The translations under genes were made by a program, and so were the position numbers. The notes under the pieces were generated by a model. That model searched no databases, had not been told where the DNA came from, and was given only the letters and a program-made list of their open reading frames with translations. 36,145 bases of DNA. Origin: Bacteroidota bacterium. Lineage in GTDB: Bacteria > Bacteroidota > Bacteroidia > 2-12-FULL-35-15. Below, piece by piece: positions 8,448-35,685 of this stretch. The DNA lies in assembly GCA_023251855.1 (NCBI GenBank), contig JAHEYA010000001.1, positions 1 to 36,145 of the forward strand, written 5' to 3'. The first letter of the stretch is position 1; every line of letters starts with the position of its first letter.

Positions 8448-8550
8448 TGAATACAAGAGAGGAAATGTTCATTAGAGGAAGGCAGCTGATATCCGTATGT
8501 TAGGGCTGAAAATAGAACTGGTTTAAAGTTTTTTAACAAAATCATTTCCT

Positions 8551-10947: not shown

Positions 10948-11004
10948 CAAATGCCATATAAGTGAATATGGATTTTACAGGGACTTGTAAATTTTAATTT
11001 AAAA

Positions 11005-16200: not shown

Positions 16201-16803
16201 TGCAGCTAATAAAATATCCACATTATTATTCAAATGTCCTGATAGTTGTAAGTTTAAATTCGAATTAACTACTACATCTTGATTGTTACCAAATGAGAGT
16301 CCTCTTGAAATACTACCTGTTTTATTTAAGCCCTCCATTTTAAAAATGTCTTCATTTTTTGATTCTGCCGAATAACTAAAAGGGTTGTTATTACCAAATA
16401 GATCGGGCTTAATAAGGCTGTAGTCTTTGTGTTTTATTTCAGAAGAAAATAAATATGGAAATGTTTTATAAGAGACTTTTAAGCTGTCAACAACAAAAGG
16501 ATCGCCTTCTTCACGTTTTAGAAATGGCAGTAGGAGAGAGGAGTCAATTTTTTTTCGATCAAGTATTACCTGTGCGGTGGCATAATTTAAAGTGTAGAGT
16601 GTACTGTCCAACTTTGTTCCGTTAACAAGAGTAATTGTTACAGAGCCAGGAACAAGGCTAAGTGTATCAAGTTGAAGTGTGTCACTTTCAACTTTGTAGC
16701 GATTATATTTTTTCCCTTCCGGATAGCGAACCCTTCTGTTTTGGGCATATCCCATTGCTGAGAAAAAAAGCAACAACAAAAAAAATATTATTTTTCGAAC
16801 CAT
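13216..16803 (-). CDS. Large (1195 aa) predicted outer-membrane beta-barrel protein. I do not recognise the family.
   Basis: Signal peptide MVRKIIFFLLLLFFSAMGYAQ. There are long stretches of alternating-hydrophobic beta-strand-like sequence rich in N/S/Y/G (e.g. ITWGFSYQRNL, LQLSLTYDGRQ). The C-terminus is aromatic (GGAQVRAYF), which is typical of OMP barrels. Confidence 0.6.
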   Translation of the reverse strand: MVRKIIFFLLLLFFSAMGYAQNRRVRYPEGKKYNRYKVESDTLQLDTLSLVPGSVTITLVNGTKLDSTLYTLNYATAQVILDRKKIDSSLLLPFLKREEGDPFVVDSLKVSYKTFPYLFSSEIKHKDYSLIKPDLFGNNNPFSYSAESKNEDIFKMEGLNKTGSISRGLSFGNNQDVVVNSNLNLQLSGHLNNNVDILLAATDNNIPIQPEGNTQQLQEFDKVFIQLSNANTKLIAGDFQLTRPKSYFMNFYKKAQGLSFSTALKTGKENKNIKEQGLYTTSVNAAVSRGKFARNQLQGIESNQGPYRLRGAENEPFIIVLSGTEKVYIDGRLMDRGQENDYVINYNTSEITFTAKQLITKDKRIVVEFQYSDKNYARSLVHFGNDFEKDKLRLYLNIYSEQDSKNQPLQQNLTPQQKVLLSQIGDSLSLAVAPSSDSVAFSNNEVLYKKRDTLIGTQSYSIFIYSINSDSAHFRVAFSNVGLGKGNYKQIASSANGKVFQWIAPVAGVKQGNFEPVIQLITPHQKQMMTTGADYVFSENSKLSVEGALSKNDINTFSTADKKNDVGVGLKMNFDNIKSLGTEQQQTIDTSINSFVKLLTNVNYEYVQKYFSPVERYRSIEFERDWNRTSVTMIDDQHIVGAGLQLVKKGTGSIGYKFNSFLEGSNYNANKQFVNLNFKQKGFDLNYNSSLLNSTSSANSAFYRHKSGVSQKVKWVTIGIKDELEQNKFTLGKKDSLLANSYQFWEWQGYIQNSDTTKNRYGLNYKQRTDYAMKNLIASKGLNKSAFAESFGGFFELLQNPNNQLKINAAYRRLQIIDSALTMQKPDNSLVSRIEYNFRIWKGLLYSNSFYEIGSGLEVKKEFSYIEVAPGLGVYTWNDYNGNGIKELNEFEVATFPNTATYVKIYTPTLDYIKVYINQFSEQLMLKPAALWASKSGARKFISRFANQSAYRVDRKSSETDLTKAYDPFITVTDNPNLITLNSSFRNTLFINQMSPVLGIDLSYQDVRNKLLLVNGFDTRQNISKEVRLRWNMSQLFWWEINYKDGKKINTSQFFSVRNFSILYFEAAPKFNFQPTTAFRATASFKYSDKKNAAEYGSQRASIKDYGIEIKYNVLQKGSLNLKANLIQIQFNGTSNTSLAFEMMDALQKGKNITWGFSYQRNLSNNLQLSLTYDGRQSEGNPAIHTGGAQVRAYF

Positions 16804-21020: not shown

Positions 21021-22145
21021 ATGAATATCCAACACTTATTACAACGGGCTTTAAATTTCGAATTTTTATCAATCGAAGAAGGTGTTTTTTTATTCAAAAG
21101 CGCTCCAACAGCTGATTTGATGTTTGTTGCCAATGAGCTCCGTAAAATTCAAAAACCGGATGGAAAAGTTACTTGGCAGATTGATCGAAATGTAAATACA
21201 ACCAATGTATGTATCGCAAATTGTAAGTTTTGCAATTTTTATCGCATTCCAGGACATAAAGATGCTTACATAACAGATATTGCCACCTACAAGAAAAAAA
21301 TTGACGAGACGTTTCAATTAGGGGGTGATCAGCTTTTATTACAAGGTGGTCATCATCCCGGTTTAGGTTTAAAGTTTTATGTTGACCTTTTCAAAGAATT
21401 AAAAAGTTTATACCCGCATTTAAAACTTCATACACTCGGGCCACCGGAAGTAGCACACATTACCAAACTCGAAAAATCAACTCATGCTGAGGTTTTGAAA
21501 GCGCTGAAAGATGCAGGAATGGACAGCATGCCCGGTGCCGGTGCTGAAATATTGAATGACAGAGTACGTAGATTAATTTCAAAAGGAAAATGTACCGGTC
21601 GCGAATGGTTGGATGTAATGCGGGCTGCACACCAATTAAACATTACTACTTCAGCCACCATGATGTTTGGCCATATTGAAACTATTGAAGAACGTTTCGA
21701 ACATTTGGTACTGATACGTCAGGTGCAAAGCGAAAAACCGAAAGATGCAAAAGGGTTTTTGGCCTTTATTCCATGGACCTTTCAGGATGATGGAACTTTG
21801 TTAAGGCGCCATAAAGGAATTAAAAACAGTACTACTGGCGATGAATATATTCGTATGATAGCAATGAGTCGCATTATGCTACCCAATGTAATTAACATAC
21901 AAGCCAGTTGGCTTACTGTTGGTAAAGATGTCGCCAAACTTTGTTTGCATTCGGGTGCAAATGATTTTGGAAGTATTATGATAGAAGAAAACGTAGTATC
22001 GGCAGCAGGTGCTCCGCATCGCTTTACTGCCAAAGGAATTCAAGAGGCTATTCAGGAAGCTGGTTTTGAACCACAACTGCGAACTCAGCAATATGATTTC
22101 CGCGAATTACCTGCTGATATGGTGGAGCAGGTGATCAATTATTAA
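21021..22145 (+). CDS. Radical SAM enzyme of the MqnC/MqnE (CofH-like) family, i.e. futalosine-route menaquinone biosynthesis. I cannot discriminate MqnC from MqnE by eye.
   Basis: CxxxCxxC cluster motif CIANCKFCNFYR, preceded by QIDRNVNTTNV. 374 aa. GGDQLLLQGGHHP and FGHIETIEERFEHL are typical of this family. Confidence 0.7.
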   Translation: MNIQHLLQRALNFEFLSIEEGVFLFKSAPTADLMFVANELRKIQKPDGKVTWQIDRNVNTTNVCIANCKFCNFYRIPGHKDAYITDIATYKKKIDETFQLGGDQLLLQGGHHPGLGLKFYVDLFKELKSLYPHLKLHTLGPPEVAHITKLEKSTHAEVLKALKDAGMDSMPGAGAEILNDRVRRLISKGKCTGREWLDVMRAAHQLNITTSATMMFGHIETIEERFEHLVLIRQVQSEKPKDAKGFLAFIPWTFQDDGTLLRRHKGIKNSTTGDEYIRMIAMSRIMLPNVINIQASWLTVGKDVAKLCLHSGANDFGSIMIEENVVSAAGAPHRFTAKGIQEAIQEAGFEPQLRTQQYDFRELPADMVEQVINY

Positions 22146-22795: not shown

Positions 22796-24397
22796 TTAGT
22801 GACTGAAATTAGACGCAGCAACCGTTAAACCACCGGTAGACGCATTATTAGTTAACTGCCATGCAGTATTGTTTGCATAATCAATTGTAATGGATGATTG
22901 ATAAAAAAGGGGAAAAGTATTAGCCCCTCGCCAAAAAGTATTTCCTTTTATCGCAATATTCGCAAAGGTGGCTCCATTAGTGCTTGATGTTATTTTTATA
23001 CAATAGGCATCACTGGTTTGCATTCCAAAAAGATTATCAGCAATACTGTATATTTTAAAACCGGAAGTTGTAGGGTCGATATTAATAGGTGGCGTACTTG
23101 TATTTATACCGCTTCTGAATTGATTATTTGATATGGTTGCTTGATTGCAAACCTGAGTAGCATTGTTGATGAAAATGCTGCTGCTACTGCAACGGTTGCC
23201 GGCAAACACAAAATCGCTCTGGAGCGCATAGATTGAACTTGTACCAATATAACAACCTGAAATGTTTGAAATGGCACACTGGTTTACTGCTTCACTACCA
23301 ATGGTAGTGCCTGTTATGGAGGAACCCACAAACTCATTACATCTCGGAAGTGTACAGTTTGAAACAGAGGAGTGAACAACAGAACCTAACAAATAGGTGA
23401 ATCCGGTGGTAACTCCTGAAAACTGACAATTATCAAATTTGCTGTCGTATCCTAATCGTGGGCAATTGCCTGTGAACGTGCAATTAATGAATTCTCCCCA
23501 TTGACAATCCACATCAACAGCATTAAAAGTAACGCCATTAAAAACACAGCTATTCCCAACAGAAAGAATGTAAGTGCCATTTCCTGTGATAGTGCCACCG
23601 CTTACTACAAGGTGGTTTGCATTCAGTCCGGTGTAGTTTGCCCCAAGAGTTATCGTTCCCTGAACAAGTGCATAATTATCTGATGGAACAGTTATAGAAG
23701 TATAATTGGACAAGGTTAAAATATAGATGCCAGCGCCTGTAGCACCTGTTGCGCCCGTCATTCCACCACCCGGTCCTGTAGCACCAACAAAACCAGTTGT
23801 ACCGGTACCACCTGTACTTCCCGCACCGGGCCCTGTTGGTCCTGTTATGCCGGGAGATCCTGTTCCTGTAGCACCTGTACTTCCTGCACCTGTAGCACCA
23901 ACAGAACCTGTACCACCCATAGCACCTGTTGCGCCAGTGTTTCCTTTAATACCAGTTGCGCCAATAGCCCCTGCCGCTCCTGTAGCACCAGCAACACCAC
24001 CGTTTGAAGCAAATAAAGCATAAGGAACACTAAGTAATTGTTTGTTTCCGGTAATGCTGTAGGTTGTGCCACCTGTTGGGTCAGTTTCTGTTTTAATAAA
24101 AAATATTCCTGATGCCCAGTTGATCGCAGAAAAAACACCTGTAACAACTGTTCCAGTACCTATTTCAATTGTTGCAAGCCCATTGATATTTGTAGTTGTT
24201 GTTTGTGTTTCAACATAAACTGCTGTACCGGTTGAGCTACCTTGTAAAATACTTACCTTCATTCCAACACTTGTGCTTGCAACAAGAACATTGTTAGCAT
24301 TGCGTATAACAGCCTGGTAGCTCATTTTTTGCGGTGCCTGAGCAAAAGTGGACGTGATAATAAGCAGATTTGTTAATGTAACGATTAGGTTTTTCAT
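22796..24397 (-). CDS. Secreted collagen-like (Gly-X-Thr) repeat protein with a conserved N-terminal domain and a Cys-rich C-terminal region that looks like a parallel beta-helix
   Basis: Signal peptide ending TFAQ/AP. N-terminal domain [14 protein letters not shown]...SVPYALFA. About 90 aa of GXY triplets ([28 protein letters not shown]...). Repetitive NC.F / GN..S.SS.I turns follow ([37 protein letters not shown]). No T9SS tail is recognisable. Confidence 0.75.
23729..24001 (-). repeat. Collagen-like GXY triplet repeat (coding); a local GC-rich island
   Basis: aa 133-223 of the 533-aa protein. 13 uninterrupted GXY triplets are followed by interrupted runs. The opposite strand gives the artefactual PAPVAPV ORF. 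Confidence 0.85.
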
Positions 24398-24402
24398 TGT
24401 AT

Positions 24403-24915
24403 TTAATTTTTAATTATTTTGAATGTTTTAACTTCGTTGTTATTCCTGAATACGTTAATAAAATAAATACCGGAGGCCAATTTGTCCATAGAAACAGGAG
24501 TTTCATCGGTTTCGATTTTTTTATTTAAAAGCAGTTTGCCTTGAATATCGAAAAGAGAAAAAGTGAAAATTTCAGATTTACTGTTTACTATTTTCAATAA
24601 AATAAAATCAGTTGCAGGGTTTGGATAAACAGAAGCGGTGAGTTCAATACCAATATCATCAATACCTGTTATATTAAAAATTTCGTAAGGTTGTTGTATC
24701 CCTTGTGTGATAACCCCTCCGGAGCCGGTTGCTGTAATATAATCTGTTTGCCCTATGGTATAACTTGCAGCCCCGCCTATTCCTGAAGCATCACCACCTG
24801 TAGCTTCAGTACCTTGTTGTCCAAAGAGGTTGGTGATTCGGAATGATAGTATTAAAAAAGCAAATAAAATTGTTTTTGTTGTACTCATATTCTTTTGGTT
24901 TCGAATAGCTAACAA
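24403..24915 (-). CDS. Small secreted protein with a T9SS C-terminal sorting domain (Por_Secre_tail type)
   Basis: The C-terminal ~80 aa (nt 24406-24645) read [14 protein letters not shown]...[11 protein letters not shown]...[10 protein letters not shown]...KTFKIIKN. The N-terminal part has a [17 protein letters not shown]...GIQQPYEI motif. The true start is probably the ATG at 24886-24888 ([16 protein letters not shown]). Confidence 0.85.
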
Positions 24916-25291: not shown

Positions 25292-25687
25292 TTATTTCTT
25301 CTTAATAATTTTTGAGGCAATAAAAGCAAACAATCCTAAAACAAGCCCAGAAATCAATCCAACGACTGGTCCCGTCATTAAAATCATCAACCGTGGTGCA
25401 TCAGGCATTGGCATTCTAGTCATCATTGTAGCTTCTTCCGCATGGTTAGCAATGTAGGAATCAAATAAAATAATGTGAGCAGCAGTGATCCAAACAGCAT
25501 TTACTAAACTCACAAAGAGGCCATGTAAAAAATATTTTCCGGTGCATTGCTTTGCTATGATGTAGGCACAAACAATAAAAATAACCAACCAGAACAATGG
25601 TTCGATATTGGAAGGAATAAAATAAACGGTTGCAATTGCCATTGCTAAACCGAAAAGCGAAAGTTGGAAGATTAATTTTTTGTTCAT
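25292..25687 (-). CDS. Hypothetical small integral membrane protein (about 4 TM helices)
   Basis: 131 aa with four hydrophobic segments and a C-terminal KIIKKK. I recognise no family. Confidence 0.55.
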   Translation of the reverse strand: MNKKLIFQLSLFGLAMAIATVYFIPSNIEPLFWLVIFIVCAYIIAKQCTGKYFLHGLFVSLVNAVWITAAHIILFDSYIANHAEEATMMTRMPMPDAPRLMILMTGPVVGLISGLVLGLFAFIASKIIKKK

Positions 25688-25860: not shown

Positions 25861-26613
25861 TCACTTGCGCTTTTTTATCAACTCTAAAATTCCATTGATA
25901 AATGTAAGAGGATGAATAGGGTTTCCCGGAACATATAAATCAATTTTGTATTTACTTAAAAAACGTCTGTTCAGTGCAGGACTTCCTTCAAATATTCCCC
26001 CGCTGATGGCATCTATGCCGGCGAGAATAATAATTTTTGGTTCAGGAGTTGCGTCATAACAGATTTGTAGCGGCTCTGCCATATTTTCTGAAACAGAACC
26101 TGTGATTACAATTCCATCTGCATGGCGGGGCGAAGCAACAAATTCAATTCCGAAACGACCCATATCAAAGTTCACATTGCCGCAAGCGTTCAGTTCCAAC
26201 TCACAACTGTTATCGCCTCCTGCTGATACTTGTCTTAACTTTAAAGAGCCACTGAAATATTCAAAAGTTTCTTTTCGAATCAAATCAGGATTTAATTCAA
26301 TCGGCTTATCCTCTCCTTCTCTAATAATGAGTCGTTCTCTTTCGTTAGAGGAAATTTTATAATCGGTTGTAAATTTTATTTTGTTAGGAAAAGCAAAAGC
26401 ACATTCGCCACAAAATGTGCATTTACCCAAATCAATTTTAACAGGACTTGTGTTGATTGCTCCTGTGGGACATAAATCTACAAGTTCCTGCTCATTCACT
26501 TTTTCAGAACTTATTATAGGTCTGCCCCGAAAAATTCCAGGCACCTCTGCTTTCGTTATATCGGGGATATATTGTTTTCCCTGATGAAAAAGTATTTTAA
26601 TATTTTTAATCAT
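25861..26613 (-). CDS. Fusion of a single-cluster ferredoxin remnant (HycF/NuoI-like) to a HycG/NuoB-like small subunit that lacks the canonical proximal [4Fe-4S] ligands
   Basis: The N-terminus has LCPTGAI ... CTFCGECAFAFP. The C-terminal part aligns to HycG: RFGIEFVASPRHADGIVITG and PEPKIIILAG. Three cluster motifs are altered: VDCGGCNGCE has become VSAGGDNSCE, GACGNSGG has become GIDAISGG, and PGCPP has become PGNPI. Confidence 0.82.
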   Translation of the reverse strand: MIKNIKILFHQGKQYIPDITKAEVPGIFRGRPIISSEKVNEQELVDLCPTGAINTSPVKIDLGKCTFCGECAFAFPNKIKFTTDYKISSNERERLIIREGEDKPIELNPDLIRKETFEYFSGSLKLRQVSAGGDNSCELELNACGNVNFDMGRFGIEFVASPRHADGIVITGSVSENMAEPLQICYDATPEPKIIILAGIDAISGGIFEGSPALNRRFLSKYKIDLYVPGNPIHPLTFINGILELIKKRK

Positions 26614-26624
26614 TTTTTTACTTT

Positions 26625-28121
26625 TTACAAATCATGTCCGCAATAAGATAAATCAAAACTTTTGTTGCAAATTGGAAAATCAGAAATTTCATTGTTGCGA
26701 ACAGCCAAAGCCAAAGCCAGCCAGTTGTGCATGGATGGATCTTTCACTTTGTAGTGTACCAGTTCGCCTTTTTCATCCGTGATAGCACAATGACAAATTT
26801 CTCCCCGCCATCCTTCCACCAATGAAATGACAAATGAATCAGATGAAGGAGGAGATAAAATAGTTCGATTCTTATTTTCTGAAGGAATATTCTCTGATAA
26901 TTTTCTGATGTATCCTATGGATTGTTTTATTTCTTCTTTTCGTATTTGCGCTCTTGAATAAACATCTCCGTGATTTTTAATAATCGGCTGATGATTTAAT
27001 GAAGAATAAAAATTGTGGGGATGTGATGAGCGAATATCCCGATTAATGCCACTCATTCTTGCCGACATTCCCACTGTACCGATGGATGACGCCTGTTCGG
27101 TTGTTACAATTCCTGTTTTTTCAAATCGCGCAAGCACAGTAGGCAAAGTAAATGTTTCTTTGCACATCTCATCAAAGTCGGGCTCATAATCGTCAAAAAG
27201 TTTATGAAGTGTATCACATAATGTTTTATGAAGAGGAAAATGATTTTTTCCTGCACGGATCAACCCTTTTGCAAGGCGGTTTCCGCACCATATTTGAAAA
27301 TAATTTATAACAGGTGTGCGTAACCTTCCGAAAACAGAACTTCCGAGTTGGTATGCAACATCCGTACACATAGCGCTCAAATCGCCTGTGTGAATAGCTA
27401 TGCGTTCTAACTCCAACGCAACTGTTCTTGCGTATTGCAACTCTTCATCTGCTTTGTAATTACATAAACTTTCCCAGAGATTAACGAAACAGGTGGTGTG
27501 TCCGGAAACTGCGTCACCTGAAATGTTTTCGGCAAGTGTGATGCGTTGCAATAATTTTTTCTTTTCAAGAAATAAGTTTTCAATTCCCCGATGCTGAAAT
27601 CCTAATTGAATTTCCAAATGAAGAATCTGTTCTCCGTTGCAGATGAAGCGGAAATGACCAGGTTCAATTACTCCTGCATGAATGGGACCTACCCCTACTT
27701 CGTGCAGCTCTTCGCTTTCAATTTTGTAAAATGGATAATTAGCAACTGTGGAATTTTTATCTGCTCTGTTGAATGAAAAACGTGTAGGTTTAAGCCAGGT
27801 GTGATCGGTGTAATTAATACCAAAATTTTCGTGAATCTCTCTTTCAAAAATGTGAAAAGCAAGGTGATGGTGTGTGAACGAAGAAAGTGTTTGATGTTGT
27901 TCAACTATAGAAGATGAAATATAAATAGTTCCTTCTTTATCATTTGCTATGCAGCAAATAAGTTTAATTTTTCCTTGAAAACGAAATCCATAATAGTTTA
28001 CGCAATGATAATGCGATTCCTTGAGCAGAGAAGTATTATGTTCCAGAAACTGCTCGTATCCTAACACAGGAATAGAGAGTACAGGAATACATTGATTATT
28101 TTTTACTTCGAGGTGATTCAT
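26625..28121 (-). CDS. HycE/HyfG/NuoCD-like 'large subunit' (fused NuoC-like and NuoD-like domains) lacking all four [NiFe] cysteine ligands
   Basis: NuoC-like segment FEREIHENFGINYTDH. Large-subunit core VGVGPIHAGVIEPGHFRF...LHLEIQLGFQHRGIE. The L1 motif position reads LAENISGDAVSGH (HycE: LAERVCGICGFAH). The C-terminal L2 position reads SFDLSYCGHDL (HycE: SLDPCYSCTDR). Confidence 0.85.
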   Translation of the reverse strand: MNHLEVKNNQCIPVLSIPVLGYEQFLEHNTSLLKESHYHCVNYYGFRFQGKIKLICCIANDKEGTIYISSSIVEQHQTLSSFTHHHLAFHIFEREIHENFGINYTDHTWLKPTRFSFNRADKNSTVANYPFYKIESEELHEVGVGPIHAGVIEPGHFRFICNGEQILHLEIQLGFQHRGIENLFLEKKKLLQRITLAENISGDAVSGHTTCFVNLWESLCNYKADEELQYARTVALELERIAIHTGDLSAMCTDVAYQLGSSVFGRLRTPVINYFQIWCGNRLAKGLIRAGKNHFPLHKTLCDTLHKLFDDYEPDFDEMCKETFTLPTVLARFEKTGIVTTEQASSIGTVGMSARMSGINRDIRSSHPHNFYSSLNHQPIIKNHGDVYSRAQIRKEEIKQSIGYIRKLSENIPSENKNRTILSPPSSDSFVISLVEGWRGEICHCAITDEKGELVHYKVKDPSMHNWLALALAVRNNEISDFPICNKSFDLSYCGHDL

Positions 28122-28122
28122 A

Positions 28123-29553
28123 TTAGTGCGGTAAATTTTTTATTGCATCGTTAATTAAATCGATAAATTCGGCCGGAGGATTAAAACCGAGATAAATAAC
28201 TAATCCAAGCAGGACAAACTGAGAAATGGATTCGTACCATTTTATTTTTTCTACCTCTTCATCATTAAATTCAACAGCAGGTGTGAACAAAAGTTTGAAA
28301 ATATTTTTCCCGAAGGCCCATATAATGATAGTGAGCAAAATCAAAAGAACAATCAGAACAAAAAGATAATGAGCTTCAAACAGCGATCTGAAAATCATAA
28401 ACTCGCTGATAAAAAGCCCCGATGGCGGCATAGCGGCACTACAAAAAAAGGCAAGCAATAATACCATTGCACCTGCGAGATTATATTTAAAATAATTTCC
28501 AACATCGTAAATGCTTTTGCTTTTATAGATGCGATAAACTTGTCCCATCTGAAAAAACATACTTGATTTCGCAAAAGCGTGCAAGATAATATGAAGAATA
28601 GCGGCATAATAACCAATTCCGCCTGCAACTAAACCAAGCATAACGATCCCTGCGTGTTCAATACTGGAATATGCCAGCATCCGTTTAATATTTTTTACTT
28701 TGAGCATATACACTGCTGAGACAAAAACAGAGAGCAAAGCCGCAATCATTATAATATGATTCGCCCACAAATGGAGTGAGGTGTGTGCAATTATTTCATA
28801 GAAGCGGAATATTCCTATGAATCCTACATTCATCAACACACTTCCCAAAAGCGCACCAGCAGGTGATGGGGCTTTATCTTTTGCGTCAATGCCCGCTGTA
28901 TACATTGGTACGAGACCAAGTTTTGCGGTATATCCTGTAAAAATGAAAATGAAAGCCAAACGAAGCCAAAAGATATTCAGACCACTCGCATTATTCAATA
29001 AATCAGGGAATGAAAGATCGGTGTGACCCGCCTGCTGTAAAGCGATACTGAGAAATAATATGCCTATAAAAACAAAAGTGATACTGATGGAACAAACAAA
29101 AATATATTTCCAGGTACCTTCTAGTGTACGGCTATTTCTTCGGTGGTAAATTAATGCAGAAGCGGAAAGTGTTGTCAGCTCGACAAAAATCCAAGTTACT
29201 GCTACGTGATTGGAAAGATATGCTGCGCTGATTGCAGCGATCAGCATGGTCATTGCAGAAAAATAAATTCCACGTTGTTGAGGGATGTCTTTGTGTTTAA
29301 GAAAATAAACATAACTGTGGTAATATGCAGGAATTGAAATAATGCTGAGCGTAATCAGCAGTAGAATTGACAATGCATCGGGTTTGAAGAAGCCGAAGAA
29401 CTCATCAACGTTGCGGTGATTGTATTCATAGGCTGTGAAAGCACATTGTCCGGTTATAAAAATTGCAACAAGCATATAATTCAGCAAACGGTTCCTGTTT
29501 AAAAACAACAGTGCGCTGATAATGATTGCTCCTGTTAAATATTCTGCTATCAT
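28123..29553 (-). CDS. Antiporter-like membrane subunit (HyfF/HyfD / NuoN/NuoM / MrpD family)
   Basis: 476 aa and polytopic. Motifs WIFVELTTLSASALI (TM5 Glu), GYTAKLGLVPMY (TM7 Lys), and LHAFAKSSMFF (TM8 Lys). Confidence 0.85.
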   Translation of the reverse strand: MIAEYLTGAIIISALLFLNRNRLLNYMLVAIFITGQCAFTAYEYNHRNVDEFFGFFKPDALSILLLITLSIISIPAYYHSYVYFLKHKDIPQQRGIYFSAMTMLIAAISAAYLSNHVAVTWIFVELTTLSASALIYHRRNSRTLEGTWKYIFVCSISITFVFIGILFLSIALQQAGHTDLSFPDLLNNASGLNIFWLRLAFIFIFTGYTAKLGLVPMYTAGIDAKDKAPSPAGALLGSVLMNVGFIGIFRFYEIIAHTSLHLWANHIIMIAALLSVFVSAVYMLKVKNIKRMLAYSSIEHAGIVMLGLVAGGIGYYAAILHIILHAFAKSSMFFQMGQVYRIYKSKSIYDVGNYFKYNLAGAMVLLLAFFCSAAMPPSGLFISEFMIFRSLFEAHYLFVLIVLLILLTIIIWAFGKNIFKLLFTPAVEFNDEEVEKIKWYESISQFVLLGLVIYLGFNPPAEFIDLINDAIKNLPH

Positions 29554-29561
29554 ATTATTTT

Positions 29562-30191
29562 TTAATCTTTCAGATTTTGTAATTGTTCCACATCCACATC
29601 TTTCAGCACATCTCCTATTTTGTTTACAAAAATTCCAAGAACAAGAACGCTTACAAAAAGGTCGAGCAGTATCCCGGTGTTCACCAACATAGGCATTTCA
29701 TTTCCTACGGCAAGCGACAAAATAAAAACGCCATTTTCGATGACCAGGAATCCCATCACATGTGTGATAATTTTTTTTCTAGTGATGATGATGTACAACC
29801 CAGTGAATAATGAGGAAAATGCTACCACAAAATAAATTTTATTTAAGTGTGGGTCCTCAATTATATTAGAAAGCAGGAAGGTAACAATGATGATGAACGT
29901 TACAATGATCAGGGATATAAAATTGGGCAGAAAAGGTTCTACTTCGCGGGTAATTCTGTTTCGCCTTATGATATAATTCAGTAAAAGGGGAACTGCAATG
30001 GTTTTAAAAACAATGGTTTCAAATAAAATAAAAATAAGGTTCAGGATGTTTATTTCTTTCAATTCGATAAAACTCACTCCGAATAAAAGAAGTCCCTGAA
30101 AGACAAGTATCTTAATGTAACTGCCCATACGATTGGCAATGCTGAGATAAATCAGCGTCATTGCAAAAGTGATTAGTAAAACATTGATCAT
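29562..30191 (-). CDS. HyfE-like small membrane subunit (hydrogenase-4 component E / NuoK-related)
   Basis: 209 aa. RKKIITHVMGFLVIENGVFILSLAV compares with E. coli HyfE RNILRQIFGYCLMENGSHLVLALL. The C-terminal VDVEQLQNLKD compares with LDVNNLTALKG. Confidence 0.8.
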   Translation of the reverse strand: MINVLLITFAMTLIYLSIANRMGSYIKILVFQGLLLFGVSFIELKEINILNLIFILFETIVFKTIAVPLLLNYIIRRNRITREVEPFLPNFISLIIVTFIIIVTFLLSNIIEDPHLNKIYFVVAFSSLFTGLYIIITRKKIITHVMGFLVIENGVFILSLAVGNEMPMLVNTGILLDLFVSVLVLGIFVNKIGDVLKDVDVEQLQNLKD

Positions 30192-30198
30192 AGTTTTT

Positions 30199-31104
30199 TT
30201 AAATAAATTTCCCTATTACCATCAAAACTCCAAAAAATATCATCAGGGCAACAGAAGTTAGTGTGAAAATAAATTGTGCATTATGATTCATTCGGAATCG
30301 TGCCGAGAAGGATTCAAGGATACCTACAATCACAGCAAAGATTATCTGGACCGCAAAGAATATAGGTATTGTCAAGTACATTTGAAAATTGGCAATAAAA
30401 AAATTTGCAATGAGCGCACCGTACATGGCAAATTTCAGGTTGGTAGCGAACAGAATTAACCCCAAATCAAAACCGCTATTGTCAAGAATCATCACTTCGT
30501 GAATCATCGTTAATTCAAGATGTGTTTTCGGGTCGTCAATAGGCATACGGCTGTTTTCAATCATCGCAATCATTATCAAAATGAATGTTGCCAGAACTCC
30601 AAGCGCATACGAGATGTATGAGCCAAAGTGCAATGAAATAAAAATGTCATGGAAGGAAGTGTGTCCGGTGAATAAAGCAAACGAACCCATCAAAATAAAA
30701 AATGCAGGCTCAGCCAACATAGAATACAATGCTTCGCGACTTGCTCCTATTCCTTCAAAACTGCTTCCTGTATCCATTGCCGAAATGATAGAGAAAAATT
30801 TACCAAGTGCAAGAACATATGCGAAAAAAACAAAATCACCTTCAAAAGAAATAATTCCTTTGTATTGCCCGAAGGGAATTACCAGGATCGCCATCAGCAC
30901 GGAAGCGAAATAAATGCTGGGGGCGATCTGAAAAACAAAACTGGTTGTTTTACTGTACACCGCATCTTTTTTCCACAAGCGTATAACGTCCTTCATGGGC
31001 TGAAATATCCCCGGACCCTTTCTCCCTGAAGCAATGCTTTTTGTCCGGATAATAATACCCATGAAAAATAAACTTGTAATAATTATCAAAGCAAAACTTA
31101 TCAT
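30199..31104 (-). CDS. NuoH/HyfC/HycD-like membrane subunit
   Basis: 301 aa with about 8 TM helices. The N-terminal signature is RTKSIASGRKGPGIFQPMKDVIRLWKK (NuoH-type R.GP...QP..D..KL..K). Confidence 0.85.
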   Translation of the reverse strand: MISFALIIITSLFFMGIIIRTKSIASGRKGPGIFQPMKDVIRLWKKDAVYSKTTSFVFQIAPSIYFASVLMAILVIPFGQYKGIISFEGDFVFFAYVLALGKFFSIISAMDTGSSFEGIGASREALYSMLAEPAFFILMGSFALFTGHTSFHDIFISLHFGSYISYALGVLATFILIMIAMIENSRMPIDDPKTHLELTMIHEVMILDNSGFDLGLILFATNLKFAMYGALIANFFIANFQMYLTIPIFFAVQIIFAVIVGILESFSARFRMNHNAQFIFTLTSVALMIFFGVLMVIGKFI

Positions 31105-31105
31105 A

Positions 31106-33139
31106 TTACAATTGATTTAAAAATTTCATTAATGATATTATTGCTCCATACAAAAATGGTAGTCCTATGACTAATGTAATAAAAATAAAGCCATACAGTA
31201 TGTAGAATTGCGGGTTGCCATTTTGCAGAAAACGAAATTTCCCAAAAAAATATTTCATCTGCTTAATCGGAATATCAATTAATAATTCTTCCATTTTATC
31301 CTGAGGGTGGGTTTCGTAGGAACTTTTTTCAGGGAAAATACTTTTTATCAACACCTCCTTTTTATGAATAGATAAAAACGGTTTGGCAAGTTTGCGGTAA
31401 GTACGAATAAAAGAATTTGCAGTGTACTGCATTTTCGCTGTATTGCCAACATACCCACATCCCCAAGTGGTTGCAAACGATTCCGGCTTTTGCTTTGTAA
31501 TTTGTTTACGGGTAAAAAAGATAATTCCCGCCAGCGAAATAAATCCCATAGCGCACCATCCGATGTATTGCATCGTGTACGCTATATCAGAAACGGGCGG
31601 CATCGTTTCTGTTGCAACAGATAATTTATCCTTAAATAATTTCAGCGGTTCAGATAACCAGTGAAGAAAAAAAATCGGGAATAAACCGATAGCAACAATT
31701 AACCCCATTACCAGATACATCGGAATAAGTTTTGCAGTATTTGCTTCGGATGGCTGATGAGAAAAACTGTGTTGTGGGCTGCCGAGAAATACCACACCGA
31801 ATGCCTTGGTAAAGCATAAGAGCGCAAGTCCGCCAATAAGTACCAATCCAAAAACAGAGGACAAAAGCGACAATGTTGAAAACAGATTTCCATGATTCAT
31901 TCCCTTGAACAAACCAAAATAAATCAAAAACTCAGAGGCAAATCCGTTAAATGGAGGGAGCCCGCATATAGCAAGTGCTGCAACCAGAAATAAAACAGAG
32001 GTGTGAGGCATTCGTTTCGCTAATCCGCCTAAGTGTTCAATATTCATCGTATGAGTAGACTGGTAAACATTGCCGGATCCATAAAACAAAAGTGATTTAA
32101 ACAGTGAGTGATTTAATACATGAAGCATAGCTCCGGCAAACCCGAGAGTTGTAAGAAGAAAATTATTTGTTCCAATCCCTATTGTTCCTAATCCTATTCC
32201 AATTCCAATGATTCCGATGTTCTCAATGCTGTGGTAGGCAAGAAGTTTTTTCAGATTATGTTGAACGATTGCGAGCATCACTCCGTAAATTCCTGAAACA
32301 ACAGAAATAAAAAGGATAATAAAACCTAATAAAACATAATCCGTTTTGATCAATAGAATCATTCGAAGGATTCCGTAAATGCCAATTTTGATAATCACTC
32401 CGGACATAATCCCTGAAACATGCGAAGGTGCAGCAGGATGTGCATAAGGAAGCCAGGTATGAAACGGAACAAATCCCGCCTTGATTGCAAATGCAGTGAA
32501 GAAGCAAAGAAACAAAGCCAAACTTGTGAGCGGAGGAAAAGAAGTTGAGAATTCGGTGATCGCTCTGAAGTCATAGGAATTCATCCGTGTTCCTACCCAT
32601 ATAAAACCAAGATAAAGAAACACCATGCTTACATGCGCCTGAATTAAATAATTGACCCCTGCTTTTATACAATCTTGTTTATAATGTTCAAAAATTATCA
32701 AAAAGAAGGACGACAATGCCATAATTTCCCATGCGAATAGAAATACAATTGCATTTTGCACAACACAGATTATTGTCAGCGCAGATTGAATTCCGAGATA
32801 TGCAATGCAATGGAGAGTAATATTTGAAGATTGTTCCCTGTAGGATCTCATATATTGCAAACCGTACAATGCACCTGTGATCATTGTGAAATTAATGAGC
32901 AATATAAACCATCCTGAAAGCCCATCAATCCGAATTGGAATTTCGCCTGTTACAAAAGTCCCCTTTAAAATAAACTCTATCTTATCACCAAGTAATGCTT
33001 TCACTGAAATAATACCCCCGATGACTGCAATCAGGATTACTGTCAAAAGAGTTACTATTCCCTTCCATTTTACGTTGAGAAAAGGAATCAGCAGAATGCT
33101 TATTGCAACAATCAACAGAGATATCGCAATCATTACCAT
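31106..33139 (-). CDS. Antiporter-like membrane subunit, HyfB/HycC/NuoL/MrpA family (copy 2)
   Basis: 677 aa. Motifs AWEIMALSSFFLI, FAIKAGFVPFHTWLPYAHPAAPSHVSG, LNHSLFKSLLFYGSG, and TWGCGY in the C-terminal extension. Its start codon overlaps the upstream stop (ATGA at 33137-33141). Confidence 0.88.
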   Translation of the reverse strand: MVMIAISLLIVAISILLIPFLNVKWKGIVTLLTVILIAVIGGIISVKALLGDKIEFILKGTFVTGEIPIRIDGLSGWFILLINFTMITGALYGLQYMRSYREQSSNITLHCIAYLGIQSALTIICVVQNAIVFLFAWEIMALSSFFLIIFEHYKQDCIKAGVNYLIQAHVSMVFLYLGFIWVGTRMNSYDFRAITEFSTSFPPLTSLALFLCFFTAFAIKAGFVPFHTWLPYAHPAAPSHVSGIMSGVIIKIGIYGILRMILLIKTDYVLLGFIILFISVVSGIYGVMLAIVQHNLKKLLAYHSIENIGIIGIGIGLGTIGIGTNNFLLTTLGFAGAMLHVLNHSLFKSLLFYGSGNVYQSTHTMNIEHLGGLAKRMPHTSVLFLVAALAICGLPPFNGFASEFLIYFGLFKGMNHGNLFSTLSLLSSVFGLVLIGGLALLCFTKAFGVVFLGSPQHSFSHQPSEANTAKLIPMYLVMGLIVAIGLFPIFFLHWLSEPLKLFKDKLSVATETMPPVSDIAYTMQYIGWCAMGFISLAGIIFFTRKQITKQKPESFATTWGCGYVGNTAKMQYTANSFIRTYRKLAKPFLSIHKKEVLIKSIFPEKSSYETHPQDKMEELLIDIPIKQMKYFFGKFRFLQNGNPQFYILYGFIFITLVIGLPFLYGAIISLMKFLNQL

Positions 33140-35148
33140 CAGACGAAATTAAATAACGTTCCTAAAAATACCAAGATAAAAAAAAACACTCCATACAATA
33201 CATACATCTGTATTTTACCATTCTGAATGAATTGAAAATAGTTCAGACTAAACAACAAACGGTTTGTGAAACGATAAATAATATTGTTTTCAAAAAAATC
33301 AATATAATGAGATGTATGACTTCTTGTTTGCGGAAAGATTTCATGAGGTGCAAGTTCGGTATATTTTTTCTTCTCCGTTACAATAAACCACAGTAATTTG
33401 CCCAGTGTTTTTGAAAAAGATTTACCCGTGAACTGCATCTTGCTGTAAGGCGCAACATAACCGCAGCCCCAGGTAGTATTTAGCTGAGCAACGCGATTTC
33501 GGGTAAATAAGTTCCGAATAAGAAAAACTAATATCAGCAGAATTAAAAACATCAAAGAATATTTTCCGACCTCGGCAATTAATGATATTGTTGGTACCAT
33601 TGATTGAAAGATGGAAACATCGGATCGTTGTATGGATGGAACAACCGAATTAATGATACAGAGCAGAACAGAAAAATAAAACTGCGGGAACAAACCTATG
33701 GAAAGCATAATCAGGATGATTAAAAATTGCGGTATGCGCATTATCAAAGAAACTTCGGTAGGTGTGTGATGAAATTCTTCGCGCAGGTTTCCCAAAAATA
33801 GGATTCCAAAACTTTTTGTAAATGTAAGCAACGATAACCCGCCAATGATAGCCAATCCCGACAGAGAAAGAATCATCAATACAGAATGAAACAATCCCAT
33901 TGTTTTTATTCCATTCAAGAATCCCATATAGATTAAAAATTCAGAAACAAACCCATTGAAAGGCGGCAGACCGCCAATAGCAAGCGCGCCTATAAGAAAC
34001 AACACAGCGGTTTGTGGCATCTTATGAACTAAACCGCCAAGTTTTTCCATATCGCGGGTGTGTGTTTGCTGATAAACAGAACCTGCAGAAAAAAACAAAA
34101 GCGATTTGAAAAGCGAATGATTCAGAGTATGTAACAAAGCACCGCTTAACCCGATAACGAGTAGTAAAGGATTATTCAGTCCCATCCCGATTAATGCAAG
34201 GCCAATTCCTGCTCCGATGATTCCAATATTTTCAATCGTGCAATACGCCAGCATTTTTTTTAAATCCCGGTGAACGGCAGCATTCAGGATTCCGTAAACC
34301 CCAGTTATTATCGAAAGAATCAAAAGCGATTCGCCAATCAACATCAAATCATTTTTCAGCATCAATGCTACACGGATAATTCCATAAATGCCAAGTTTGA
34401 CAATTACTCCCGACATCACTCCTGAAATATGTGAAGGAGCAGCAGGATGAGCGTGAGGAAGCCATGAGTGCAGAGGAATAAATCCCGCTTTGATTCCAAA
34501 GCCGATAAAAAATAAAAGAAACAACCAGAAGTTTGAATTGGCATTGAAAAAAATTCCAATTGAATAAAAATCACATGAACCTTCGGAGAAATACACCCAA
34601 AGAAATGCGATTGTTAAAAACACAACTCCGATGTGCATTTGCACTAAATAATTCATTCCCGCCCTGAGTGTTTGTTTGTTACTATGTTCAAATATTACAA
34701 GTAAAAAAGAGGAGAGCGACATCAGTTCCCAAGCAATGAGAAACGCCAAACTATGCTGGAGCATACAAACCCATAACATTGATGATTGAAAAATCAAAAA
34801 TAAAATCCAGTGCAGTGAAAGATTTGCTTTTTGTTCACTATAGGATTTCATATAACCAATACCGTATAGCGCACCATTAATGCAAGTCAGGTTTATTATC
34901 AGCATAAACCACGCTGATAACGCGTCTATCCGTAATGGAACATTTCCGAAAAAAGGAGGGCCTGCAATAATCATTTCAAACGGATTTCCAATGAGAACAT
35001 TTACAGCAAGAATGGAAGTAACAGAAGCAATAAACAAAACAAAAATGAAATTAATAACTGCTTTTATTTTGGAAGGGAATAGTGGAATTAAAACAATGCC
35101 CACGCTTGTTAAAATTAAAGATGAAACCACCAACTGAACACTTCCCAT
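33139..35148 (-). CDS. Antiporter-like membrane subunit, HyfB/HycC/NuoL/MrpA family (copy 1)
   Basis: 669 aa. Motifs AWELMSLSSFLLV, GFGIKAGFIPLHSWLPHAHPAAPSHISG, LNHSLFKSLLFFSAG, and TWGCGY. It is a paralog of the following gene. Confidence 0.88.
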   Translation of the reverse strand: MGSVQLVVSSLILTSVGIVLIPLFPSKIKAVINFIFVLFIASVTSILAVNVLIGNPFEMIIAGPPFFGNVPLRIDALSAWFMLIINLTCINGALYGIGYMKSYSEQKANLSLHWILFLIFQSSMLWVCMLQHSLAFLIAWELMSLSSFLLVIFEHSNKQTLRAGMNYLVQMHIGVVFLTIAFLWVYFSEGSCDFYSIGIFFNANSNFWLFLLFFIGFGIKAGFIPLHSWLPHAHPAAPSHISGVMSGVIVKLGIYGIIRVALMLKNDLMLIGESLLILSIITGVYGILNAAVHRDLKKMLAYCTIENIGIIGAGIGLALIGMGLNNPLLLVIGLSGALLHTLNHSLFKSLLFFSAGSVYQQTHTRDMEKLGGLVHKMPQTAVLFLIGALAIGGLPPFNGFVSEFLIYMGFLNGIKTMGLFHSVLMILSLSGLAIIGGLSLLTFTKSFGILFLGNLREEFHHTPTEVSLIMRIPQFLIILIMLSIGLFPQFYFSVLLCIINSVVPSIQRSDVSIFQSMVPTISLIAEVGKYSLMFLILLILVFLIRNLFTRNRVAQLNTTWGCGYVAPYSKMQFTGKSFSKTLGKLLWFIVTEKKKYTELAPHEIFPQTRSHTSHYIDFFENNIIYRFTNRLLFSLNYFQFIQNGKIQMYVLYGVFFFILVFLGTLFNFV

Positions 35149-35171
35149 AACTTTTTTATTCCCGTTATAAA

Positions 35172-35252
35172 TTATTTATTGAATTTACTTTCGGCAAAAA
35201 TAATTTCTTTCATAATTCTTTCTTTGATTTTTGACCATTGGTTTTCGGTCAT
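35172..35252 (-). CDS. Possible 26-aa small ORF (MTENQWSKIKERIMKEIIFAESKFNK) 23 nt upstream of the first antiporter-like gene
   Basis: ATG at 35250-35252 and TAA at 35172-35174. It is below the ORF-track size cutoff. There is no homology support, and a candidate -7 box (35195-35202) lies inside it. Confidence 0.12.
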   Translation of the reverse strand: MTENQWSKIKERIMKEIIFAESKFNK

Positions 35253-35262
35253 AAATTGGATG

Positions 35263-35463
35263 CTAAAATACTGTTTTATTCTTGTTTTTGTTTTCTTGTA
35301 TGTAGGATGATTTGGCTCTTTTGATTTTACCCCCTGAGGTTAGTTTTGTGGTTGGTTGGGCAAAGGCAAATGTGTCAAATGCACGACTGTTAAAGAAGTT
35401 TTCAAAAATGTGAAGTGAGTTTTTTTGTTTTTGTCTTTTGCTGGGGTTTGCGAAGTGGCGCAT
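35263..35463 (-). CDS. Possible 66-aa basic, low-complexity small protein, or else a non-coding leader of the Ehr-like operon
   Basis: The ORF begins about 10-15 nt downstream of a TATCTTTG -7 box (35481-35488). The sequence is K/N/Q-rich and I recognise no family. Confidence 0.2.
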   Translation of the reverse strand: MRHFANPSKRQKQKNSLHIFENFFNSRAFDTFAFAQPTTKLTSGGKIKRAKSSYIQENKNKNKTVF

Positions 35464-35480
35464 TAAACTGTCTCACCGCA

Positions 35481-35488
35481 CAAAGATA
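35481..35488 (-). promoter_or_regulatory. Candidate -7 box (TATCTTTG on the - strand) that could drive the Ehr-like operon through a leader of about 320 nt
   Basis: Plus strand reads CAAAGATA. The octamer is identical to the box in front of the radical SAM gene at 20998-21005. Confidence 0.3.
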
Positions 35489-35685
35489 ATTAATTGAAAC
35501 GAACTTTGATTTTATAAGGAAATCCGCATTGTACACATAAACTGTCTATGCCGGTGGTGTGTCTTGTCTTATGAAACGATTGTCGAGGTCGGTAATCATT
35601 TTAAAATGACGATCAATAACTCTGCCGATCCAATATAATTAAGCCCGCTTTAATAATATGTTAAACATCAAAAAACACAAAAAAT

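Follow-up and report, generated by a model that had tools for sequence, protein, structure and literature searches.

A complete operon for an energy-converting-hydrogenase-related (Ehr) membrane complex, arranged ehrA1-ehrA2-ehrB-ehrC-ehrD-ehrL-ehrS, very probably occupies the minus strand of a 36,145-nucleotide (nt) stretch of DNA from a Bacteroidota bacterium (contig JAHEYA010000001.1, GenBank assembly GCA_023251855.1), the whole of which is called the window below. Jointly with this assignment, and with the same high confidence, the complex appears to represent a derived, Bacteroidota-centred Ehr subtype and to descend from a minimal six-subunit Hyf-type [NiFe] hydrogenase with its small subunit fused to a ferredoxin-like subunit. 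Judging from the ligand residues, the subtype has lost the NiFe site, the proximal [4Fe-4S] cluster and one of the two ferredoxin-domain clusters. The electron wire would thus be removed in a common Bacteroidota form of Ehr, the rest of the machine being under strong purifying selection, and the choice is sharpened to one between coupling machinery with a non-redox driver or use and electrons that arrive by another route.

Operon organisation

Seven co-directional open reading frames (ORFs) at 25861-35148, separated by gaps of -1, 1, 7, 8, 1 and 11 nt, encode 3,080 residues in total. A first, sequence-only reading of the window had described seven minus-strand genes with gaps of -1 to 11 nt and had named the subunits they encode, and both points were confirmed by the ORFs and by Pfam and NCBIfam calls. 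Every subunit scored below the curated NCBIfam equivalog cut-off, which sets all seven apart from ordinary Hyf, Hyc and Nuo subunits. For the comparison with solved structures, EhrL and EhrS were aligned to HycE, HycG, MbhL, MbhJ and complex I. The genes and the sites within them are listed here (aa, amino acids; TM, transmembrane helix).

33139..35148, minus strand: ehrA-1, HyfB/NuoL-like antiporter subunit, 669 aa; PF00361 (Proton_antipo_M) E=3.7e-55; NF005086 HyfB, 500 bits against a cut-off of 667; best solved relative HycC (7z0s_C)
31106..33139, minus strand: ehrA-2, second HyfB-like antiporter subunit, 677 aa; Proton_antipo_M; best match HyfB; 46% identity to ehrA-1
30199..31104, minus strand: ehrB, HyfC/HycD/NuoH-like subunit, 301 aa; PF00146 (NADHdh) E=3.6e-31; best solved relative HycD (7z0s_D)
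30469..30558, minus strand: EhrB TM5-TM6 loop ENSRMPIDDPKTHLELTMIHEVMILDNSGF, with the motif D-[DN]-P-x-THLELTM[IV]HE
29562..30191, minus strand: ehrC, HyfE-like subunit, 209 aa, NuoK-like in its C-terminal half; NF008556 HyfE E=2.3e-16; PF00420 E=2.5e-05
28123..29553, minus strand: ehrD, HyfF/NuoN-like antiporter subunit, 476 aa; PF00361 E=9.8e-41; HyfF models up to 216 bits
26625..28121, minus strand: ehrL, large subunit of the HycE type (NuoC-NuoD fusion), lacking NiFe ligands, 498 aa; Complex1_30kDa and Complex1_49kDa; best solved matches HycE and MbhL
27498..27527, minus strand: former L1 NiFe motif of EhrL, now NISGDAVSGH; in the alignment to HycE, Cys1 becomes S201 and Cys2 becomes A204, with D203 gained
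26628..26660, minus strand: former L2 NiFe motif of EhrL, now SFDLSYCGHDL; in the alignment to HycE, Cys3 becomes S492 and Cys4 becomes G495
27645..27695, minus strand: EhrL loop GVGPIHAGVIEPGHFRF with the hydrogenase-type Glu E153, invariant in relatives
25861..26613, minus strand: ehrS, small subunit of the NuoB/HycG type carrying a fused ferredoxin-like domain, 250 aa; PF01058 (Oxidored_q6) E=4.1e-19; PF00037 (Fer4) E=6.7e-05; best solved relatives MbhJ and HycG
26386..26472, minus strand: retained four-Cys site of EhrS, C48-P ... C65-x2-C68-x2-C71; F75 stands in place of the fourth Cys in the second motif
25912..26214, minus strand: former proximal (N2-type) cluster site of EhrS, D134, C137, D201 and N231 with H234 nearby, from the alignment to HycG and MbhJ

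Metal sites of the large and small subunits

The alignments to solved structures bear out the earlier claim that the NiFe ligands and most proximal-cluster ligands are gone. In EhrL, the CGIC...H of HycE reads S201-G-D203-A204...H208 and DPCYSC reads D-L-S492-Y-C494-G495, with no cysteine at any of the four NiFe ligand positions, while the proximal-cluster cysteines of HycG and MbhJ fall on D134, C137, D201 and N231 of EhrS, so that one of four ligands is kept. The further claim of a stripped redox module needs qualification. It holds for the NiFe site, the proximal cluster and one ferredoxin-domain cluster, but C48, C65, C68 and C71 of EhrS are invariant in all 78 members of the conservation set (the window and 77 sequences from related genome loci), an invariance which indicates that one predicted [4Fe-4S]-type site is under strict selection and that the module is not fully stripped. 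The pattern consists of the Cys-Pro of the first ferredoxin motif and the CxxCxxC of the second, which is the ligand set of one cubane in the two-cluster ferredoxin fold; presumably it is the distal cluster, of the N6a type known from Nqo9 of T. thermophilus.

The one remaining proximal ligand, C137, is poorly kept (57/78), and the residues that replace the other three are conserved (D134 in 75/78, D201 in 71/78 and N231 in 67/78). Exactly two of the four former ligand positions hold Asp or Glu in all 72 cluster-less EhrS sequences.

For the large subunit, the window and 113 representatives, four of them true hydrogenases, were aligned, and the group 4 motifs L1 (RxCGxCxxxH) and L2 (DPCxxC) occur together in only four of these 114 sequences. 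When the 110 diverse Ehr-type subunits, with identities down to 31%, were contrasted with the four true hydrogenases, only D203, D461, S492 and G495 emerged as conserved positions specific to the Ehr type, D203 being present in 94% of the 110 and absent from all four hydrogenases. The loop GVGPIHAGxIEPGHFRF, Glu included, is common to the Ehr type and the true hydrogenases and differs from that of complex I. The quinone ligands of complex I are not kept in the alignment, where the Tyr of the DY motif becomes G202 and the loop His becomes the hydrogenase-type Glu.

An AlphaFold2 model of EhrL (predicted local distance difference test, pLDDT, 81; predicted template-modelling score 0.85) found its best PDB match in HycE (7z0s_E, template-modelling score 0.77), its confidence being low precisely in the pocket loops, residues 130-177 and 477-498. 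MBS/Mbx (6U8Y) was a much weaker match, with E=2.3e-11 for EhrL and 1.3e-09 for EhrS.

Stepwise loss of clusters

When cluster counts are read from the Cys ligand sets, the related loci fall into four stages.

True hydrogenase: P0251 / L091, contig of an uncultured spore-former; NiFe present; three cluster sites (two ferredoxin-domain and the proximal)
Three-cluster Ehr: Sulfurospirillum, Magnetoovum and Acidobacteriota, and Bacteroidota L064, L071 and L073; NiFe lost; three sites (Sulfurospirillum one ferredoxin-motif Cys short)
Two-cluster Ehr: Bacteroidota L056, L061, L062 and L070; NiFe lost; two sites (proximal lost)
One-cluster Ehr: the window and 70 other loci; NiFe lost; one site

The P0251/L091 hydrogenase has the six-gene order A-B-C-D-L-S, the fused small subunit and the EhrB loop in common with the window and retains every ligand, and neither the pocket motifs of EhrL nor the EhrB loop change from stage to stage. 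Outside the Bacteroidota, the proximal ligands are intact in five of five Ehr small subunits (Campylobacterota, Nitrospirota, Acidobacteriota, Binatia and Actinobacteriota), and the three fused ones among them also keep both ferredoxin-domain motifs, one of them short of a single Cys. An intact proximal cluster, which is no part of the published Ehr definition as quoted, is missing from EhrS of the window, which has also lost one ferredoxin-domain cluster. As far as ligand residues can tell, the loss of the proximal cluster is specific to the Bacteroidota-centred subtype and sets it apart. A Rikenellaceae small subunit has lost the proximal cluster with a different set of replacements, D/V/E/A, and the residue sets also differ between Chitinophagales-, Cytophagaceae- and Rikenellaceae-type sequences, which suggests that the cluster was lost more than once.

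To our knowledge, the one-cluster subtype and the stepwise series have not been described to date, although Coppi (2005) and Marreiros et al. (2013), who reportedly named the Ehr class, may already note cluster loss in Bacteroidetes.

Relation to the Ehr class and to other complexes

Membership in the Ehr class was judged by the published definition and by motifs common with Ehr-like operons of six other phyla, the Geobacter type example being compared by description only. Ehr complexes are defined as related to group 4 hydrogenases and devoid of NiFe ligands (PMC6349859, PMC10284858), and the gene order is given as ehrABCDLS in Methylacidiphilum, for which a role in pH homeostasis was suggested (PMC6688271). 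For G. sulfurreducens, one paper lists EhrA-1, EhrC, EhrL and EhrS among GSU0739-45 and detected every Ehr subunit as a protein, at higher abundance on formate (PMC7894505); ehrA-2 and ehrB are listed in strain KN400, in a paper that assumes the Geobacter Ehr to be non-functional (PMC13194489). This G. sulfurreducens operon has the same subunit set and order as the window, duplicated A included, and the large subunit lacks the NiFe cysteines in both. The gene order and the NiFe-free large subunit of the window therefore fit the published class (PMC6349859, PMC10284858, PMC6688271 and, for GSU0739-45, PMC7894505), as the sequence-only reading had proposed, and its statement that the class has no assigned substrate agrees with the Ehr papers, which give no assigned function or substrate (PMC6349859, PMC10284858, PMC6688271, PMC7894505). 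A literature search for a structure or a biochemical study of an Ehr complex found none, and the class has stood without an assigned substrate since it was named about twenty years ago.

The best solved relatives are subunits of E. coli Hyc/FHL (7Z0S) and of P. furiosus Mbh, with HycE, HycG, HycC and HycD among the top two solved matches for EhrL, EhrS, EhrA and EhrB and MbhJ ranking first for EhrS; E. coli Hyf (hydrogenase 4) is a further close system. Whereas the Hyf, Hyc and P0251 hydrogenases make H2 with CxxC...CxxC NiFe ligands and three clusters, the window is left with a single cluster and lacks all four NiFe ligands; Hyf and Hyc additionally carry HyfA/HycB and formate dehydrogenase partners. 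MBS/Mbx of Pyrococcus furiosus (6U8Y) is likewise a respiratory complex derived from a hydrogenase, with a large subunit devoid of NiFe, and is a detectable sequence relative. It reportedly keeps three [4Fe-4S] clusters, uses the proximal one for sulfane-sulfur reduction and comprises 13 subunits, with a complete Mrp-type module among them.

Respiratory complex I (Nuo) and cyanobacterial NDH-1 have homologues of NuoH, NuoK, NuoL/M/N, NuoB and NuoCD in Ehr, and the same modular L-shape can be expected. In contrast to complex I, Ehr has no NuoA, NuoJ, separate NuoI or NuoEFG, no N2 cluster and no quinone-binding Tyr/His pair. The Mrp Na+/H+ antiporter has subunits of the MrpA/MrpD type with the same axis of charged residues; Ehr differs from it by the lack of MrpB/E/F/G and by a NuoH-like subunit and a strongly conserved NuoB/NuoCD-like head, both missing from Mrp. 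The inorganic-carbon pumps DabAB, Cup and MpsAB have a DabA or Cup-type partner, which is not found at the Ehr locus.

Distribution and selection

Relatives of EhrL are encoded in at least 240 species-level genomes. The close homologues are all from Bacteroidota, and among the best 80 relatives nearly all belong to several orders of that phylum, with a few Leptospirales/Spirochaetia bins; the seven-gene operon also occurs in the cultured bacteria Niastella vici and Flavihumibacter profundi. Among 51 complete related loci, which span several orders, the order is A1-A2-B-C-D-L-S in 31 and A-B-C-D-L-S in 20, the latter being loci with upstream sequence long enough to exclude a second A subunit. 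The duplication of the first subunit, which the sequence-only reading had pointed out, is real but no peculiarity of this locus, as it is shared with Geobacter and with these 31 loci.

The ratio of nonsynonymous to synonymous substitution rates (dN/dS) lies at 0.03-0.09 in each of the seven genes; some pairs approach saturation of dS. Across the 31 seven-gene loci, mean identity to the window is highest for the junction subunits EhrB (75%) and EhrS (74%), against 55-56% for the A subunits, and more than 120 database clusters match EhrS at 80-88% identity. The low dN/dS and the strong conservation of EhrB and EhrS indicate that the operon, as far as sequence comparison can tell, is functional and not a relic.

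Several variants of the layout were observed. Three tandem A subunits make an eight-gene operon in Paludibacter (L037 729-12296), and A-B-C-D lie on the opposite strand, divergent from L-S, in L066 (4891-12271). A second, distant Ehr-like operon (…C-D-L-S) stands directly upstream of the main one in L076 and L078 (1-4900 in each); it encodes a large subunit without NiFe cysteines and a short small subunit that has no ferredoxin domain and carries all four proximal cysteines, so that two Ehr types stand in tandem within one organism. In Binatia and Acidimicrobiales (L083 4288-11584; L084 4405-11509) the order is S-A-B-C-D-L, and the small subunit, of 162-171 aa, has no ferredoxin domain and keeps all proximal ligands, a layout that resembles that of M. 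tuberculosis Rv0082-87.

Membrane arm

All three antiporter-like subunits have an invariant TM5 Glu, TM7 Lys, TM11 His/Lys and TM12 Glu (39-70 relatives). In EhrA-1, E141, K220, K251, H344, K348 and E403 are invariant or nearly so among 39 relatives; in EhrA-2, E138, K220, K251, H344, K348 and E403 are invariant among 54; and in EhrD, E125, K211, H325, K329 and E384 are conserved. It had been claimed that all three subunits keep the TM5 Glu and the TM7/TM8 Lys. The quoted motifs, the TM5 Glu and the TM7 Lys stand, but the TM8 position of EhrD is Asn242 (N in 61 of 70 relatives), the TM8 Lys being kept in both EhrA subunits. The residues that mark MrpA/MrpD-like subunits (TM5 Glu, TM7 Lys, TM8 Lys, TM12 Lys/Glu) are therefore all found, except for this Asn. 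The membrane carboxylates E58, E152 and D177 of EhrC are conserved as well.

In EhrB, the motif D-[DN]-P-x-THLELTM[IV]HE is unchanged in Ehr loci of Bacteroidota, Campylobacterota, Nitrospirota, Acidobacteriota, Binatia and Actinobacteriota, and the corresponding loop of HycD and MbhM differs and is three residues shorter. THLELTMIHE was considered as an Ehr-specific signature and rejected, since the nearest true hydrogenase carries the same motif; the loop therefore marks the whole clade.

Genomic context

No electron-input partner was found beside the operon. Clustering of 890 flanking ORFs from 80 loci gave only lineage-local synteny, and nine further genomic contexts, which bring the total to about 90, again showed no recurring electron-input neighbour. 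The rest of the window, which belongs to a metagenomic contig of 38 kb, contains no hyp, fdh, nuoEFG or other redox-input genes, in line with the earlier statement that hyp genes, formate dehydrogenase, NuoEFG and any other electron-input module are missing from it, and NuoA/J/I and NuoEFG are absent from operon and window alike. Neither the seven genes nor their neighbours hold a Pfam family of MrpB/E/F/G, and no DabA (PF10070), Cup-type or carbonic-anhydrase-like domain was found in the operon, the window or the recurrent neighbours.

The only neighbour that recurs across families is a gene for a SulP+STAS anion transporter. It encodes a SulP protein (PF00916 and STAS) of 726-750 aa on the same strand, 36-74 nt downstream of ehrS, in loci of Cytophagaceae, Flavobacteriales and Cyclobacteriaceae, namely L056 (12374-14626), L077 (12306-14486) and L079 (8555-10759), and lies near the operon in L023 (12877-14466) and L080 (530-2749). 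For the C-terminal ~200 residues of these SulP proteins, a Pfam search stayed empty even with the threshold relaxed to E=1. An anion transporter adjoins an Ehr operon in one more case, a Rikenellaceae locus (L090 11327-12405), where two ChrA-family (chromate transporter) genes stand 7 nt downstream of ehrS on the same strand.

Possible mechanisms

Clusters are spaced by about 10-14 Å in complex I, Mbh and FHL, and the ancestral electron path led from the distal over the medial to the proximal cluster and on to the active site, a path that is interrupted here. Because two relay stations are missing whichever ferredoxin-domain site survives, the remaining cluster would be unable, at such a spacing, to feed the EhrL pocket. 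Since the pocket, the EhrB loop and the proton axis are conserved, carboxylates have been gained and the electron path is cut, the reading favoured here, tentatively and as possible more than probable, is a redox-independent secondary translocator of protons or cations whose conserved head gates or loads ions. The three antiporter-like subunits would conduct protons along the conserved Glu/Lys/His axis, and the junction of EhrB, EhrC, EhrL and EhrS would be where ions are loaded or gated on the cytoplasmic side, with carboxylates gained at the former cofactor sites (D203 of EhrL and two Asp/Glu in EhrS) and the invariant EhrB loop kept. The lone cluster of EhrS could be structural or a redox sensor. 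Such a complex might act like the Mrp antiporters or like deactive complex I, which, with its ion-transfer and redox domains uncoupled, exchanges Na+ for H+ (PMC3464577).

A broader statement is given slightly less than an even chance, namely that the Bacteroidota Ehr subtype is a natural machine of the hydrogenase/complex-I type without electron transfer to its coupling site, its head having turned into an ion-loading or gating module, or a non-redox catalytic one, under strong selection. It is suggested because the series from NiFe with three clusters to three, two and one leaves the EhrL pocket and the EhrB coupling loop unchanged. If true, the conformational coupling engine of the complex I superfamily could be driven or used by a non-redox process, and Ehr complexes in general might not need an iron-sulfur wire for their core function.

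Several points weigh against a redox-independent translocator. The last [4Fe-4S]-type site is invariant throughout the 78 sequences, with no zero-cluster lineage seen, so some redox, sensing or structural role is still selected, and the formate-raised abundance of the G. sulfurreducens subunits may point to a connection with redox metabolism, at any rate in the three-cluster Ehr types. The conservation of the head subunits exceeds what a simple plug would require, and the MrpE/F/G-type subunits that known Mrp antiporters need are absent. The AlphaFold2 model of EhrS was unusable (pLDDT 38.9), which leaves the geometry of the former site and its distance from the remaining cluster to sequence comparison, and transport by Ehr, its ion specificity and its direction are predictions only.

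Unlikely, though still credible, is a pump that remains redox-driven, in which an unlinked soluble partner or a small-molecule donor would feed the remaining cluster or the former NiFe/N2 cavity directly, electrons would pass to an acceptor such as menaquinone or a small inorganic oxidant, and ion export would be driven. The invariant four-Cys site speaks for it, as do the full three-cluster wire of Ehr relatives in other phyla, the proton-gate Glu E153 and the EhrB loop, both the same as in the nearest true hydrogenase, and the increase of the G. sulfurreducens subunits on formate (PMC7894505). The window also encodes an MqnC-type enzyme of menaquinone biosynthesis, yet the Tyr (now G202) and the loop His (now Glu) that serve complex I as quinone ligands are absent. 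With the proximal and one ferredoxin-domain cluster gone, the ancestral relay to the EhrL pocket would be impossible at the 10-14 Å spacing assumed above; C137, the sole proximal ligand here, is kept in only 57 of 78 sequences, and in about 90 contexts no redox partner gene recurs beside the operon.

By analogy with cyanobacterial NDH-1 Cup, DabAB and MpsAB, the head might instead carry out non-redox chemistry or anion handling coupled to the gradient, such as vectorial CO2 hydration or the handling of bicarbonate or sulfate, which is judged improbable. The carboxylates and His at the former cofactor sites would suit proton or ion chemistry, and the SulP+STAS transporter is the only cross-family neighbour (tightly linked in three loci, nearby in two), with the two ChrA-family genes of the Rikenellaceae locus in addition. 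However, such adjacency concerns about 6 of some 90 loci, the window not among them, the substrates of SulP and ChrA proteins cannot be defined by sequence, and the search for carbonic-anhydrase-like, DabA (PF10070) or Cup domains was negative. Known Cup and Dab modules, moreover, sit on the distal antiporter-like subunit and not on a NuoB/D-type head.

A regulated leak of protons or cations, or a sensor, is decidedly improbable. The lone cluster, labile to O2 or redox conditions, would switch conductance or signal membrane energisation with no net energy conversion, in keeping with a single surface-type cluster that is conserved without a wire and with carriers that include aerobes (Niastella vici, Flavihumibacter profundi) as well as anaerobes (Paludibacter and members of Rikenellaceae). 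A 3,080-residue complex with three antiporter-like subunits, the first often duplicated or triplicated, would be a costly sensor, and no signalling domain or regulator is conserved nearby. That the operon is a decaying, functionless remnant of a hydrogenase operon is hardly credible and is contradicted by the selection analysis, for although the catalytic metal site and two clusters are lost and one paper assumes the Geobacter Ehr to be non-functional (PMC13194489), the seven ORFs are intact with dN/dS of 0.03-0.09, EhrS keeps 80-88% identity across more than 120 database clusters, gene order is kept in the 51 complete loci of several orders, and the Geobacter subunits were all detected as proteins (PMC7894505).

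The choice between a redox-independent translocator and these alternatives is testable, as the operon is present in the cultured Niastella vici and Flavihumibacter profundi and as Ehr forms with three, two and one clusters occur in nature and can be compared.

Upstream region and other genes of the window

One further feature belongs to the operon by its position.

35149..35685, minus strand: upstream intergenic region of 537 nt, presumed promoter and leader, 5' of ehrA-1

A regulatory RNA upstream of ehrA-1 was considered and rejected, since neither the whole window nor the 537-nt leader matched any Rfam family, and conservation of the leader and of its 26-codon upstream ORF was sought in related loci and not found. 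Promoter and terminator scans gave matches no more frequent than in shuffled sequence.

Three neighbours in the window, two downstream genes (for a 131-aa membrane protein and a YbjQ-like one) and an upstream SRPBCC gene, were considered as extra subunits and rejected, as they are absent beside related operons. The 131-aa predicted membrane protein (25292-25687, minus strand) lies 173 nt downstream of ehrS and has no family match; at the equivalent place in Niastella vici stands an unrelated 187-aa ORF that overlaps the ehrS stop (L087 10750-11313).

At 21021-22145 (plus strand) lies the gene for a radical-SAM protein with a CofH/MqnC C-terminal region, which points to the futalosine route to menaquinone; this MqnC-type gene is relevant here only as a pointer to a possible quinone pool. 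Two further ORFs, of 1,195 aa (13216-16803, minus strand) and 533 aa (22796-24397, minus strand), have no Pfam match, and the latter adjoins a small protein with a type IX secretion system (T9SS) C-terminal sorting domain (24403-24915), in keeping with a Bacteroidota source. The region 4758-13209 (plus strand) holds three consecutive genes for large sensor proteins, each ending in a SpoIIE/PP2C phosphatase domain, one of them with Reg_prop/Y_Y_Y repeats and two with TPR repeats.

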